From a virus (lineage: Duplodnaviria; Heunggongvirae; Uroviricota; Caudoviricetes): a stretch of 42,694 bases of DNA. The notes under the pieces are model-generated. The model ran no database searches, had not been told where the DNA came from, and was given only the letters and a program-made list of their open reading frames with translations. Location of the stretch: IMG/VR virus record IMGVR_UViG_2690316224_000012, positions 1 to 42,694 of that record; one strand, written 5' to 3'. Made by a program: the position numbers and the translations under genes. Shown piece after piece: positions 1,249 through 41,686 of the stretch; the first letter of the stretch is position 1, and each line of letters begins with the position of its first letter.

Positions 1249-1689
1249 ACGTAAACTTTTTCCGGTTGTTGTCGATAGCTCTATATCCCTCAACCGGAAA
1301 ATAATAATAGTAAAATGCTTAGCCCTGCTAATAATCGCCTAATCCAAACGCCTCATTCATGTTCTGGTACAGTCGCTCAAATGTACTTCAGATGCGCGGT
1401 TCGCTGATTTCCAGGACATTGTCGTCATTCAGTGACCTGTCCCGTGTATCACGGTCCTGCGAATTCATCAAGGAATGCATTGCGGAGTGAAGTATCGAGT
1501 CACGCCATATTTCGCTATCAGGATTCTGTGTGATGGTTACATCGCCCGGCTCAGGGCTGTTTAGTCATCAGCGCTTTCTGACAGTGCTGAGATTTCAACC
1601 TGTTGCAGTAAAAATGAGTAGATATAAGGCAAGTGTGCTGCCAAACCCATCTTTTACGGGGTGAAGGTAGATTTCGTTTGAAGGGTATC

Positions 1690-1704
1690 TGGTGTCCCCT
1701 GCAG
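1690..1704. repeat. attL core (direct repeat of argW 3' end), TGGTGTCCCCTGCAG
   Basis: Exact 15-bp copy of the tRNA 3' terminus at 41612..41626; flanking sequence diverges immediately. Confidence 0.7.
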
Positions 1705-1777: not shown

Positions 1778-1978
1778 TTACCCATTGGCGCGGCTTAAGA
1801 GCTTATTTTTGAATTCACAATGGTCACGATATAACCATCTTGCTCGCCCGTGGATAACTTTGGCTTTAGGCAGGTCCCCGGACTTAATCCGGTCATAGAT
1901 GAAGGTTTTACCGAAGCCAGTATCGGCCATGATGAATTTCAAATCAACCAGTGAATCAGGCTGTAGTTCGTGTTGCAT
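1778..1978 (-). CDS. torI: Excisionase / recombination directionality factor, TorI (AlpA-family) -like
   Basis: 66-aa ORF at the prophage end opposite the IntS-like integrase; size, position and recalled KplE1 synteny match TorI. Two ATTTTACCC repeats overlap its 3' end. Confidence 0.7.
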   Translation of the reverse strand: MQHELQPDSLVDLKFIMADTGFGKTFIYDRIKSGDLPKAKVIHGRARWLYRDHCEFKNKLLSRANG

Positions 1979-2023: not shown

Positions 2024-2044
2024 AAAAAAACCGCATTGATGCGG
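2024..2044 (-). terminator. Putative intrinsic terminator (minus strand) between early-left genes and torI
   Basis: Hairpin CCGCA-TTGA-TGCGG (2031..2044) preceded on the plus strand by A7, giving a U-run on the minus-strand transcript. Confidence 0.45.
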
Positions 2045-2103
2045 CAATGGCAGGTCTGGATATCTTGAGAAATGAACAGGCCTCATCGAGTGTGAGGCTG
2101 TGG

Positions 2104-5919: not shown

Positions 5920-6234
5920 TTAATTTATTCGTATACCTGCTCTTTCTTCATCGAGTTTTTTTAGCTTGTATCGCATAGCTCTTACTGAATAAATTGAGCG
6001 GCAGGTTGCAATTGCTATTTCTTCTGCGGAGAACTTACCGAAAAGTGATACTTCGGCTCTTGTCCAGCGTCTTCCACGAAGTCGGCTAACAATGTCAGCG
6101 CCAATCCTTGTTGCTTTCGCCATTACTGCTTTTTCAGTCCTTTCCAGTTTTTCAGCGATAACTTCAACTGGCATTGTCGCCGCTACTTCGCGCAAGAAAT
6201 CGACTTCCCATTTCTCCCATGGAGTCTTTTTCAT
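5920..6234 (-). CDS. Hypothetical protein with internal two-fold repeat (104 aa)
   Basis: Two similar ~35-aa segments (WEKWEVDFLREVA... and WTRAEVSLFGKFS...); possible DNA-binding repeats. Confidence 0.5.
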   Translation of the reverse strand: MKKTPWEKWEVDFLREVAATMPVEVIAEKLERTEKAVMAKATRIGADIVSRLRGRRWTRAEVSLFGKFSAEEIAIATCRSIYSVRAMRYKLKKLDEERAGIRIN

Positions 6235-6245
6235 AGGCGATACCG

Positions 6246-6734
6246 TTATTTGATAAGAAGTGAAGGTTTCCCAACCTTGAGTTGAGCGCCGGGGATATTT
6301 ATTCCTGCTTTTAGTTGGTGCTTGATTGCCAACTTGTCGGCTTTAATTGTCGTTTCAAACTCAACGTATTCAGGAGGAAGGGCGCTTGAGTCGATGATTT
6401 CTACAGTTTCTGACGGTTTGCGGATTGTTACCTGGTGAATACCTGCTCGAATATTTTTCTTGCCAACCATTTCAAGCGATGACGCTATATATGATTTGAT
6501 GCTGTCAATCTTATTTTGAATTACTGCGGCTCGCTCATTCAGTGACTTTGCCTCTTCCTTGAGGCGTTCAGCATAACCAGATTCATTTTTAATGACGGAA
6601 AGAAGTTGCTCTATTTTATCGGTAAATTCTCCTTCCATGCCTTCTATTGTGTCAGCAATCATCTCTGGTTCTAAATCTGAATCCATCAATTTTGCGTATT
6701 CATTGGCTATTTCATACAGTTTGCTCACTGGCAA
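6246..6734 (-). CDS. Gp157 / Mu Gam-like protein (putative host-nuclease inhibitor)
   Basis: 162 aa with coiled-coil N-terminus and beta-rich C-terminus, immediately downstream of RecT; family assignment from memory. Confidence 0.5.
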   Translation of the reverse strand: MPVSKLYEIANEYAKLMDSDLEPEMIADTIEGMEGEFTDKIEQLLSVIKNESGYAERLKEEAKSLNERAAVIQNKIDSIKSYIASSLEMVGKKNIRAGIHQVTIRKPSETVEIIDSSALPPEYVEFETTIKADKLAIKHQLKAGINIPGAQLKVGKPSLLIK

Positions 6735-7623
6735 CCTCCAGTTTCGCTTTGCATTCTATGTAAATGGCTTGTACGTTCTGCTGCAATTTCATTCCAGATG
6801 TCAGGCGATATGCTTCTGCAAAATATCGCTTCAAATCATCCATGTTTTCTGCCTGAGCCATTTCATCACAAAGAAGTTGTGCTTTATCCATTATTTCCTG
6901 CTGGCGTTTCCGTTCATCTTCGCGGATATCTTCCTCTGATTTGTGCGGCATAACTGGTTCAGTCCACACACCTTCTTCTTCGTTTAGTACGTGAATAGCA
7001 CTATCAAGACGTGATGCCTTAGGCCAATACTTGCTTGCACGCTTTACGACCGTCTTTCGCGCCATCTCATTCCAGTGATTTACCCATGGTCCTTTATCGC
7101 TGAATGCTGCCTTGCTTGTTTTCCTTACAGCCTCAATTTCAGCCAGACTCATCTCTTCCGTTAGATAATCACCTGCTGGCGTCTTAACTGTGCAGTAAAC
7201 GCCAACGATATCACCACGATCACCGAAGGCGTTGTATTTATGGGTTGGTGCTTTATCAAGCCCGTTTGACTCATAGGTATCGTTAGCATGAACAAGTTTT
7301 GCCTGACCCCATGAGATAACACCAGACTCCATTGCAATATGGAGCAATCCCATATAACTGATATCAAGGCACACCATGCCGTCGCGCGGAACCAGATAAG
7401 CCAGTTTGCTTGCAGGGTTTAAGGTGATGCCGATCGCCGCAACGTTGATGATAGCGTTCTGTGCGCTGGTTGGATTTGCCAGTGCCGTTTTAGCCAGGTA
7501 ATCATTTTTCTGGAAATACTGAATTGCAAACTGGCTTTCCTTAGCCCATGTCACCGTCTGTTCAGTCAATGCTCCGCAGAATAACTGCTCTTGCTGTTTA
7601 ACGAATTCAACGATATTGCTCAT
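6712..7623 (-). CDS. recT: RecT-family single-strand annealing recombinase
   Basis: Segment GPWVNHWNEMARKTVVKRASKYWP matches the conserved RecT motif (Rac RecT GPWVTHWEEMAKKTAIRRLFKYLP). Confidence 0.85.
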   Translation of the reverse strand: MSNIVEFVKQQEQLFCGALTEQTVTWAKESQFAIQYFQKNDYLAKTALANPTSAQNAIINVAAIGITLNPASKLAYLVPRDGMVCLDISYMGLLHIAMESGVISWGQAKLVHANDTYESNGLDKAPTHKYNAFGDRGDIVGVYCTVKTPAGDYLTEEMSLAEIEAVRKTSKAAFSDKGPWVNHWNEMARKTVVKRASKYWPKASRLDSAIHVLNEEEGVWTEPVMPHKSEEDIREDERKRQQEIMDKAQLLCDEMAQAENMDDLKRYFAEAYRLTSGMKLQQNVQAIYIECKAKLEVASEQTV

Positions 7624-7931
7624 GCTGCTTCTCCAAAAATGTGTCTGCGTTTGAATATTGCGAAGGCATATTCAGCCTTAACTCTTTCGGTTATTGCATC
7701 CCAGAACCATTCAGCGGCTTTTTCCTGATAGTTACAGTCATCATCTTCCAGCCAGTCGATAGCGTCCTTAGTGTGTTCATCTGGTTTATATGAGCGAAGC
7801 ATTTCGCTTATTGGGTCGCAACGTTTGCAGAGGCGATCAACTTCACTGTTGATTCGTTCGTAATCTTCATCAGTAAAACTTGCGATTATTTGCGATATTT
7901 CACGCTTATCATTCAGAGTCAGAATCATCAT
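7620..7931 (-). CDS. Hypothetical protein (103 aa)
   Basis: ORF with GGAGA SD upstream; its stop overlaps the recT start. Confidence 0.5.
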   Translation of the reverse strand: MMILTLNDKREISQIIASFTDEDYERINSEVDRLCKRCDPISEMLRSYKPDEHTKDAIDWLEDDDCNYQEKAAEWFWDAITERVKAEYAFAIFKRRHIFGEAA

Positions 7932-20337: not shown

Positions 20338-20412
20338 GGGTCAGTCGTATAAAGGTCATTACGGAAGGCTGTTAACCTTCTTATCGTGGTTCGAGTCCAC
20401 GCTGTCCCGCCA
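20338..20412 (+). tRNA. tRNA-Asn (anticodon GUU), phage-encoded
   Basis: Hand-folded cloverleaf: anticodon stem GAAGG/CCTTC with loop CUGUUAA, T-arm CGTGG-TTCGAGT-CCACG, 3' CCA; one acceptor-stem and one D-stem mismatch. Confidence 0.5.
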
Positions 20413-20417
20413 AATAT

Positions 20418-20493
20418 GCTGGTTTAGCTCCAATGGTAGAGCAGTCGCCTTGTAAGCGAATGGGTAGCGGTTCAAGTCCGTTAACCAGCACCA
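20418..20493 (+). tRNA. tRNA-Thr (anticodon UGU), phage-encoded
   Basis: Hand-folded cloverleaf: perfect 7-bp acceptor stem, D-arm GCTC/GAGC with GG loop, anticodon loop CUUGUAA, T-loop TTCAAGT, 3' ACCA. Confidence 0.6.
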
Positions 20494-40292: not shown

Positions 40293-41450
40293 TCACTCCA
40301 CCTTCCCATCAAGCCATTCCGCCCACCACTGCATCATTTCTCTGCGCTTATCTAGATACTGAGCATGGTTGTAAATCCCGCGCACAGATCCGCCGTTGGC
40401 ATGTGCAAGTTGCACTTCAATAGCGTCAGCAGGCCATTCGTGCTCGTTCATAATCGTGCTGAATTCATGCCTGAATCCGTGACCGCTTTCCAGACCCTCA
40501 TAGCCGATTTGTTTAATCACAAGTAGCACCGCGTTCTCGCAGATTGGCTTCTTCTTATCGTTGCGTCCGGCAAAAACAAACTCTGATACTGGTTTGGTGA
40601 TTGAGCTTAGCGTAGTGAGAAGTTCAACCACCTGGTCTGACATAGGAACCACATGAATTTTGCGTCCCTTCATCACACTGGCGTCGATAGTGATAATCCT
40701 GTTTTCAAAATCGACGTTCTTCCATTGCATGGAACGAAGCTCTTTCGTTCTTAGGGCTGTGTAGCGTAAAACTTTGGTCGCAATGAGCGATACGATGCTT
40801 CCTGAAAATGTTGCCAGTGCTTTGTTGAATGCCGGGATCTGGTCTGCAGGAAGAAACGGGAAGTTCTTCTTGCGGTATCCTTTCATGGCGTCTGCAAGGT
40901 CAGGTGCCGGGTTATATTTAGCCCTACCAGTGACAATAGCGTAACGGAAAACCTCGCCGCATCTTCTGCGTGCTTTGTTGGCTCGCTCCATTGCGCCGCG
41001 ATCTTCAAATCTGCGGATTACTTCCAGCAGTTGCATCGGCTCAATATCCTGAATTTCAAGGCCGCCGATGATAGGTAAAATGTCGTCATCAAACATTTTT
41101 GCAAGTTCAGTTGCATAGCCTACTGACCAGACTTGCTTCTTGTGCTCGTACCATTCCTTGTAAATCGCACTAAAGGAATTGTTGTTAGACGAAGCCTTTT
41201 TCGCTTTTACCGGATCGATGCCAACCGAGATGTCTTTCCTCGCAGTCCATGCTTTATCCCTTGCCTCCTGCAAAGTCATTAGCGGATATTTTCCTACGGT
41301 CAGGATTTTCTCCTTACCGTCAATCTTGTAGCGAAGCTGCCATACCTTTTTCCCTGACACAGGGACATAAAGGTACAGGCCATTACCATCGAGTAGGCGG
41401 TATGGTTTTTCTTTCGGCTTTGCTGCTTCAATCTGCTTAACGGTGAGCAT
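40293..41450 (-). CDS. intS: Tyrosine integrase, IntS (KplE1/CPS-53) type
   Basis: Track ORF begins with GTG at 41486; ATG at 41450 gives 385 aa starting MLTVKQIEAAKPKEKPYRL..., as recalled for E. coli IntS; adjacent to argW. Confidence 0.85.
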   Translation of the reverse strand: MLTVKQIEAAKPKEKPYRLLDGNGLYLYVPVSGKKVWQLRYKIDGKEKILTVGKYPLMTLQEARDKAWTARKDISVGIDPVKAKKASSNNNSFSAIYKEWYEHKKQVWSVGYATELAKMFDDDILPIIGGLEIQDIEPMQLLEVIRRFEDRGAMERANKARRRCGEVFRYAIVTGRAKYNPAPDLADAMKGYRKKNFPFLPADQIPAFNKALATFSGSIVSLIATKVLRYTALRTKELRSMQWKNVDFENRIITIDASVMKGRKIHVVPMSDQVVELLTTLSSITKPVSEFVFAGRNDKKKPICENAVLLVIKQIGYEGLESGHGFRHEFSTIMNEHEWPADAIEVQLAHANGGSVRGIYNHAQYLDKRREMMQWWAEWLDGKVE

Positions 41451-41611
41451 GGGTAAAAATCCGGTGGGTAAAATTATTTTATCCACTTTTTACCCGTCAT
41501 GGAGTGCGGCTGTCAACGATCTGACGCGAACCATTACGAACTGTGAATCTACGGAAGGCTTGATATTCAGGGGATTTTGCGGACTGGTACGGATGGGAGC
41601 GAACTGATAAA

Positions 41612-41626
41612 TGGTGTCCCCTGCAG
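41612..41626. repeat. attR core (argW 3' end), TGGTGTCCCCTGCAG
   Basis: Identical 15-mer to 1690..1704. Confidence 0.7.
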
Positions 41627-41686
41627 GAATCGAACCTGCAATTAGCCCTTAGGAGGGGCTCGTTATATCCATTTAACTAAGAGGAC
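41612..41686 (-). tRNA. argW: tRNA-Arg (anticodon CCU), argW
   Basis: Reverse complement GTCCTCTTAGTTAAATGGATATAACGAGCCCCTCCTAAGGGCTAATTGCAGGTTCGATTCCTGCAGGGGACACCA folds as a cloverleaf with a CCU anticodon. Confidence 0.9.

Follow-up and report, generated by a model that had tools for sequence, protein, structure and literature searches.

What occupies the few hundred base pairs that separate the sucrose permease gene cscB from a prophage inserted at the tRNA gene argW, and how did this DNA come to lie there? The question is raised by a stretch of 42,694 nucleotides (hereafter the window; positions 1 to 42,694 of IMG/VR virus record IMGVR_UViG_2690316224_000012), in which a segment of 441 bp at positions 1249–1689 lies between the two. 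In PMC11251922 and PMC3032704, the argW–dsdCXA/csc region is described as variable and argW as a hotspot for phages and islands (Jahreis et al. 2002, Moritz and Welch 2006), and the csc genes are reported to replace dsdC and part of dsdX beside argW in E. coli. The features on which our account of the segment is built are collected in Table 1.

Table 1. Features of the window, with positions counted from its first nucleotide
Feature	Positions	Strand	Basis or remarks
cscB (sucrose permease), left neighbour of the segment	1–1248	+	415-aa ORF; oligosaccharide MFS transporter/cscB annotation in matching genomes
3' trailer of the csc gene block	1249–1315	+	Similarity to Citrobacter amalonaticus csc loci
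Stem-loop UUUUUCCGGUUG...CAACCGGAAAA, 11-bp outer stem	1258–1301		Fold and alignment with Citrobacter
21-bp junction between csc trailer and DUF4942 relic	1316–1336		No similarity to Citrobacter csc flanks
DUF4942 pseudogene, main block	1337–1564	-	Residues 76–151 of the 281-aa intact homologue; in-frame TGA at 1388–1390
DUF4942 pseudogene, upstream block	1574–1623	-	Codons 38–54; frame differs from main block
argW-proximal block, 66 bp	1624–1689		In csc-positive genomes only (2631)
att core TGGTGTCCCCTGCAG, 15 bp	1690–1704		Partial copy of the argW 3' end at the left prophage junction; identical to 41612–41626
TorI, recombination directionality factor, 66-aa ORF	1778–1978	-	100% identity
tRNA-Asn(GTT) and tRNA-Thr(TGT), adjacent, mid-prophage	20338–20493	+	tRNA scan of the window
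Prophage integrase	40293–41486 (40296–41450 for the IntS match)	-	99% identical to IntS
argW, tRNA-Arg(CCT)	41612–41686	-	ARAGORN; right prophage junction

The limits of the segment can be drawn exactly. The stop codon of cscB occupies positions 1246–1248, and the segment starts right after it; at the other end lies the att core, the equivalent of the pawZ feature of K-12, and where the site is empty, as at the FORC_069 locus, argW itself adjoins position 1689. The true chromosomal boundary of the prophage is thereby set at 1689/1690. The earlier note, made from the sequence alone, had reported that the interval between cscB and the att junction contains no ORF of 60 aa or more, and both this statement and its coordinates proved exact, with the longest ORF wholly inside the segment measuring 44 aa. 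Such an absence is not beyond chance in 441 bp. No internal ORF of at least 60 aa occurs in 1281 of 2000 mononucleotide shuffles of the segment (64%), and its longest stop-free run, at 58 codons, falls below the shuffle mean of 71.

The segment was found in 2645 of 5426 complete E. coli genomes, on the chromosome in every case. It is single-copy in each genome except two, which carry two copies, and it is full length in 2624 of the 2645 genomes, with identities of 90–100%. Because the 3' part of cscB is present in almost the same number of these genomes (2646), segment and csc genes are inherited together. An identical copy of the 441 bp is found in FORC_069, directly between cscB and an intact argW, which is followed by yfdC and mlaA. 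To count such empty sites, we used a synthetic junction in which the right 200 bp of the segment are joined to 200 bp that comprise argW and the beginning of yfdC, with coverage of at least 80% required. This reconstructed junction is covered in 1415 of the 5426 genomes, and therefore about half of the csc-positive genomes are without an insertion at argW, while the remainder carry assorted elements between the segment and the tRNA gene. The segment is a spacer that has become fixed where the E. coli argW–dsd region has its csc (sucrose-positive) form, and the view of the earlier note that it is pre-existing chromosomal sequence is upheld. That note had also proposed that its idea of an island remnant should be abandoned if the region were conserved in strains lacking any insertion at argW. 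The segment is indeed kept at empty sites; however, this is no argument against an island origin, because the relic described below predates today's insertions and is a fixed feature of the whole csc haplotype, and the proposed condition is thus ill-posed.

The argW site is used by several different element families. In strains D97-1 and O157:H7 strain 3384 (positions 6442–6470 of each locus), the spacer is followed by a longer partial copy of argW that is missing one C (TGGTGT-CCCTGCAGGAATCGAA), after which unrelated islands begin. The D97-1 island carries DUF6387, an H-NS-like gene and the RiPP genes yhhA and yhhB, and that of O157 strain 3384 carries a recombinase gene and P22-like tail remnants. 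In L7_E1373_ETEC (positions 6080–7840), the spacer is replaced after its first 79 bp by ISEc46 (IS200/IS605 family, with tnpA and tnpB), which adjoins a truncated integrase beside argW.

The earlier note had identified no element within the segment. This part of its description has to be revised, since 287 of the 441 bp (about 65%; 1337–1623, minus strand) are a recognisable fragment of a DUF4942 gene that covers codons ~38–151 of 281 and is without codons 1–37 and 152–281. When the 281-aa protein from Nissle was used as a tblastn query, its residues 76–151 matched positions 1564–1337 of the minus strand at 51% identity (E = 3e-19). By profile score the conceptual translation of the relic belongs to Pfam family PF13708 (37.1 bits, where the curated cut-off is 25; E = 3.5e-9; positions 5–62 of the 190 in the profile), but it lacks the intact reading frame of ~280 aa. 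A more sensitive nucleotide search showed that positions 1345–1546 share 72–76% identity with intact DUF4942 genes located elsewhere in E. coli. The upstream block was recovered as a 50-nt local nucleotide alignment with two intact loci (z = 12.8–13.8, 0 of 300 shuffles), and tblastn gives a weak protein-level match at the same place; about 54 nt (codons 55–75) are absent between the two blocks. Overall, the relic is 73–77% identical at the nucleotide level to intact DUF4942 copies, which are 92% identical to each other. Because only codons ~38–151 persist, and because these are interrupted by a TGA codon, a loss of ~54 nt and a shift of frame, the relic is classed as a pseudogene fragment, a non-functional member of its family.

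Intact genes of this type come with a characteristic neighbourhood. In the loci of Nissle and M24, the module reads DUF932, antirestriction, JAB, DUF987, cbeA, cbtA, DUF5983, DUF957 and DUF4942, such that DUF4942 is the last member of the cbeA–cbtA–DUF5983–DUF957–DUF4942 series in both intact loci examined. The relic in the window points away from argW, as expected of a gene belonging to an argW-integrated island. When 5.8 billion proteins were searched for an intact gene that could be its close parent, the only matches were ORF calls on the relic itself, some of which read through stop codons, and every call that reaches the downstream end of the relic stops at the same ...GLGDY breakpoint. 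This common breakpoint, together with the near-equal counts of segment and cscB, argues for a single origin of the relic, and a shared breakpoint without a close parent points to one ancient event.

The fragment itself is already known, in that RefSeq marks it in many genomes; PGAP labels part of the segment as a DUF4942 domain-containing protein, either as a pseudogene or as a short CDS. Because the pattern of stop codons varies by strain, the relic is annotated in four ways in RefSeq, namely as a 60-aa DUF4942 CDS, as a pseudogene, as a 'hypothetical protein' or not at all (WP_371289776.1 in NZ_CP017440.1 is one example of its annotation). The decayed DUF4942 fragment thus explains the disagreement among gene callers over this spacer. 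Searches of phage and plasmid collections yielded nothing beyond ordinary DUF4942 paralogues, records of chromosome size and carry-over of host flank. Of the GenBank entries, four Escherichia phage records of 43–47 kb (ON470608.1, ON470622.1, ON470589.1 and ON470594.1) contain the host spacer at 95.5–99.8% identity, with 'A-kinase anchor protein 5' or 'hypothetical protein' as the annotation of the ORFs that cover it. The four records probably correspond to the coliphages that are said to carry csc in PMC11251922, and the presence of the spacer in them likely reflects prophage borders drawn too widely or host flank taken up on excision.

To the left of the relic, the segment begins with DNA that belongs to the csc genes. 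The first 53–72 aligned bases after the cscB stop codon are 86–90% identical to those of three Citrobacter amalonaticus loci, and because this similarity ends there, positions 1249 to about 1315 are assigned to the csc block. The whole left block (1249–1336, 88 bp) was also tried as a 3' continuation of the DUF4942 gene and was rejected, its similarity not being significant (z 0.8–1.7).

To the right of the relic, the argW-proximal block matches the integrase-proximal arm of the argW island of CE-O153H30 over 24 nt, of which 20 are identical (z = 5.3, 0 of 500 shuffles). The match lies at an equal distance from the tRNA end in that island, which has a P4-type integrase. On the strength of this alignment, we hold with moderate confidence that 1624–1689 may be what is left of the tRNA-side (integrase-side) arm of a lost island. 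No integrase sequence lies within 1624–1689, and the block is thus without the P4-type integrase that would be expected beside the tRNA; no DUF4942 module was found in the 23 kb of the CE-O153H30 island that were examined. Other argW arms, namely those of K-12 CPS-53, the prophage of the window, L7_E1373_ETEC and the distal ends of the D97-1 and O157 islands, were compared with the 66 bp and none matched. We also considered whether the segment is the native argW flank of dsd-type strains. The flank between attR and dsdC at CPS-53 in K-12 has no similarity to it, which indicates that the segment is not a native flank shared with such strains.

The divergence of the segment is close to that of silent sites in its neighbour. 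JC-corrected divergences from the window in five genomes are 0.044, 0.093, 0.044, 0.064 and 0.32, and the synonymous divergences of cscB in the same genomes, in the same order, are 0.036, 0.161, 0.036, 0.095 and 0.37; the ratio of the two ranges from 0.6 to 1.2, and cscB has dN/dS values of 0.03–0.07. Judged from these five pairwise comparisons, the segment evolves at about the neutral rate. The ratio of ~0.6 in two of the five pairs could reflect mild constraint or recombination. Within E. coli the segment carries indels of 2, 6 and 18 bp, and a divergent Escherichia genome (cscB dS 0.37) has lost 193 of the 441 bp. The relic is regarded as old because the copy in this divergent genome is shorter and more decayed.

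These rates bear on the other suggestion of the earlier note, that the segment could hold a small RNA, for which the searches made here give no support. An Rfam scan at E values up to 10 gave three sub-threshold chance matches, the best scoring 15 bits against a gathering score of 49. Within the segment, one promoter-like and two terminator-like sites were predicted (for the latter, 0.7 ± 1.0 expected), which is within chance, and no promoter–terminator pair was found. The folds of the whole segment are ordinary (z-scores of -1.1 and -0.9 for the two strands), and a literature search recovered no paper that ties an sRNA to the csc–argW spacer. Esr41 was considered as a candidate EHEC sRNA in the vicinity of csc and rejected, since its position is in OI-43, between z1181 and z1182. 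Regulatory RNAs can in principle arise from decayed island genes, and an ORF of 54–85 aa, called as a CDS by PGAP, does run over the relic in some strains, so that either a regulatory RNA or a small protein might be imagined. Yet this ORF is stopped in the window and varies in start and length among strains, and neither an Rfam family, a promoter–terminator pair nor an unusual fold was found in the segment; with near-neutral divergence, the loss of 193 bp in one lineage and no report found in the literature, we regard either product as extremely improbable. Inside the prophage, next to the TorI gene, positions 2024–2098 (minus strand) resemble the Hfq-binding sRNA isrK at 14.3 bits (gathering score 50, E = 3.1), a similarity that is probably due to chance.

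Minor functions in cis are more probable than a small RNA, though we still consider them unlikely. The stem-loop at 1258–1301 might stabilise or end the cscB transcript. It has an MFE of -19 kcal/mol and is far more stable than shuffled sequences (z = -3.79, with 0 of 200 shuffles as stable), and in comparisons of E. coli with Citrobacter its stem is invariant while its loop varies; the stem, however, shows no compensatory changes. The bases that follow are AAAAUAAUAAU on the plus strand and AAAAAGUUU on the minus strand, and because neither strand has a U-tract the structure is not a canonical intrinsic terminator; it lacks the direct U-tract that joins the hairpin in Rho-independent terminators, and the terminator scan did not flag it. 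A second, weak terminator-like hairpin at 1642..1628 (minus strand) lies 47 nt downstream of the tRNA end, where it might help to end the transcripts of argW at empty sites or those of xis/torI where the prophage is present. It too is without a proper U-tract, it belongs to a set of sites whose number is at chance level (2 against 0.7 ± 1.0), and in three of the five comparisons the divergence of the argW-proximal block around it equals or exceeds the synonymous rate. It is more speculative still, and in our estimation very improbable, that, in the ~1400 genomes whose site is empty, the argW-proximal part of the relic (~1574–1689, minus strand) has been co-opted to provide the argW transcript with its 3' trailer and terminator. 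Were this so, a core tRNA gene would owe one of its functional cis elements to a decayed island gene, and each integration at argW would swap the downstream processing and termination context of that tRNA, possibly affecting the level of the rare tRNA-Arg(CCU).

The segment is, in our view with good confidence, an inert, neutrally drifted patchwork of csc trailer, junction, DUF4942 relic and tRNA-side block left by old rearrangements. Of the two readings entertained in the earlier note, it is the decayed remnant of a former island that is supported, given that about 65% of the segment is a broken DUF4942 fragment whose orientation fits an island at argW. A likely course of events, inferred here, can be set out in three steps. 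At first, argW would have been occupied by an island that had a P4-type integrase and a cbeA/cbtA...DUF4942 module and whose genes were transcribed in the direction leading away from the tRNA. A deletion starting a little past the tRNA-side arm and reaching codon ~37 of DUF4942 would then have occurred, and a second event, which placed cscRAKB in the position of dsdC and part of dsdX, would have cut DUF4942 after codon ~151. The remnant has drifted neutrally since, and now probably has no role except as the chromosomal flank opposite whatever integrates at argW. The only repeat pair of the tRNA 3' end in the window (1690–1704 and 41612–41626) brackets the present prophage; any second, distal copy belonging to the old island would have disappeared when csc was put in place. 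Among the genomes examined, there was no intact argW island with a closely related DUF4942 gene, and the nearest intact genes (73–77%) reside at other sites. These observations, together with a protein search that gave relic copies only, count against decay in situ at argW, which is put forward as an inference. The CP4-type backbone (antirestriction–JAB–DUF987–cbeA–cbtA–DUF5983–DUF957) is absent from the segment, which also shows no similarity to DUF957 or the upstream spacer of the two intact loci.

A competing history would have the DUF4942 fragment imported together with csc, either with csc as cargo of a CP4-type island or as part of a recombined donor segment, so that the whole block from the dsdX breakpoint to argW would be foreign. 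The almost one-to-one inheritance of segment and cscB speaks for such an import, as does the finding that the difference between the csc and dsd haplotypes extends all the way to the end of the tRNA. Nissle, moreover, has DUF6088, an AbiEii toxin gene, an IS110 fragment and then kps genes beyond DUF4942, on the side towards which it is transcribed, and because further genes occur there, csc could have lain in this position. The Citrobacter amalonaticus loci, whose CscB (91–92% identity) is the closest found outside Escherichia/Shigella, nevertheless appear to argue against co-import: similarity ends ~55–70 bp past cscB and no DUF4942 follows. The orientation of the fragment and the arm-like block are also the expected leftovers of an island integrated at argW, and we consider import with csc somewhat unlikely.

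If the remnant was left in place by an island, then the csc haplotype carries the scar of an older argW island, and for this reason argW would have served as an insertion site earlier than the spread of the csc arrangement through phylogroups B1, D and E. As a convenient neutral marker, the relic can also be used to trace the csc haplotype. Its biological weight is small, and its value lies in annotation and in the reading of the argW hotspot.

The element now inserted at 1690–41611 has a history of its own. It is a full-length (~40 kb) relative of the cryptic prophage CPS-53/KpLE1 of K-12, which keeps only ~10 kb of this phage type. In SCPM-O-B-8794, a divergent E. coli (cscB dS 0.37), the same prophage end lies at the same junction (7497–7786), and at least 275 bp past the att core are close to the window, though the spacer is heavily decayed. 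The CPS-53-like phage is evidently a recent arrival in both, as judged from these alignments.

Among known systems, the nearest counterparts of the relic are the DUF4942 genes of CP4-type islands, which it resembles in codons ~38–151, in its Pfam score and in transcription away from the tRNA; it differs from them in being truncated at both ends and in having no DUF957, DUF5983, cbtA or cbeA neighbours. A second parallel is yeeW of the K-12 prophage CP4-44, a short pseudogene that survives where this CP4-type element has its distal end. Both are decayed terminal island genes that persist in the chromosome, but yeeW lies beside cbeA–cbtA in a recognisable cryptic element, whereas the relic is a lone fragment between csc and argW. 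The prophage of the window shares its att core with CPS-53/KpLE1 of K-12, along with IntS (99%) and TorI (100%); this CPS-53-like prophage was inserted later and independently, so that the relic does not stem from it, and the K-12 flank past attR is unrelated to the segment. The papers on the argW–dsdCXA/csc region treat the same locus and cover its gene content, and the spacer and its DUF4942 relic are not mentioned in them (PMC11251922, PMC3032704). Good descriptions of this locus and how it varies already exist, and the relic belongs to a familiar class, that of decayed island genes at tRNA hotspots.
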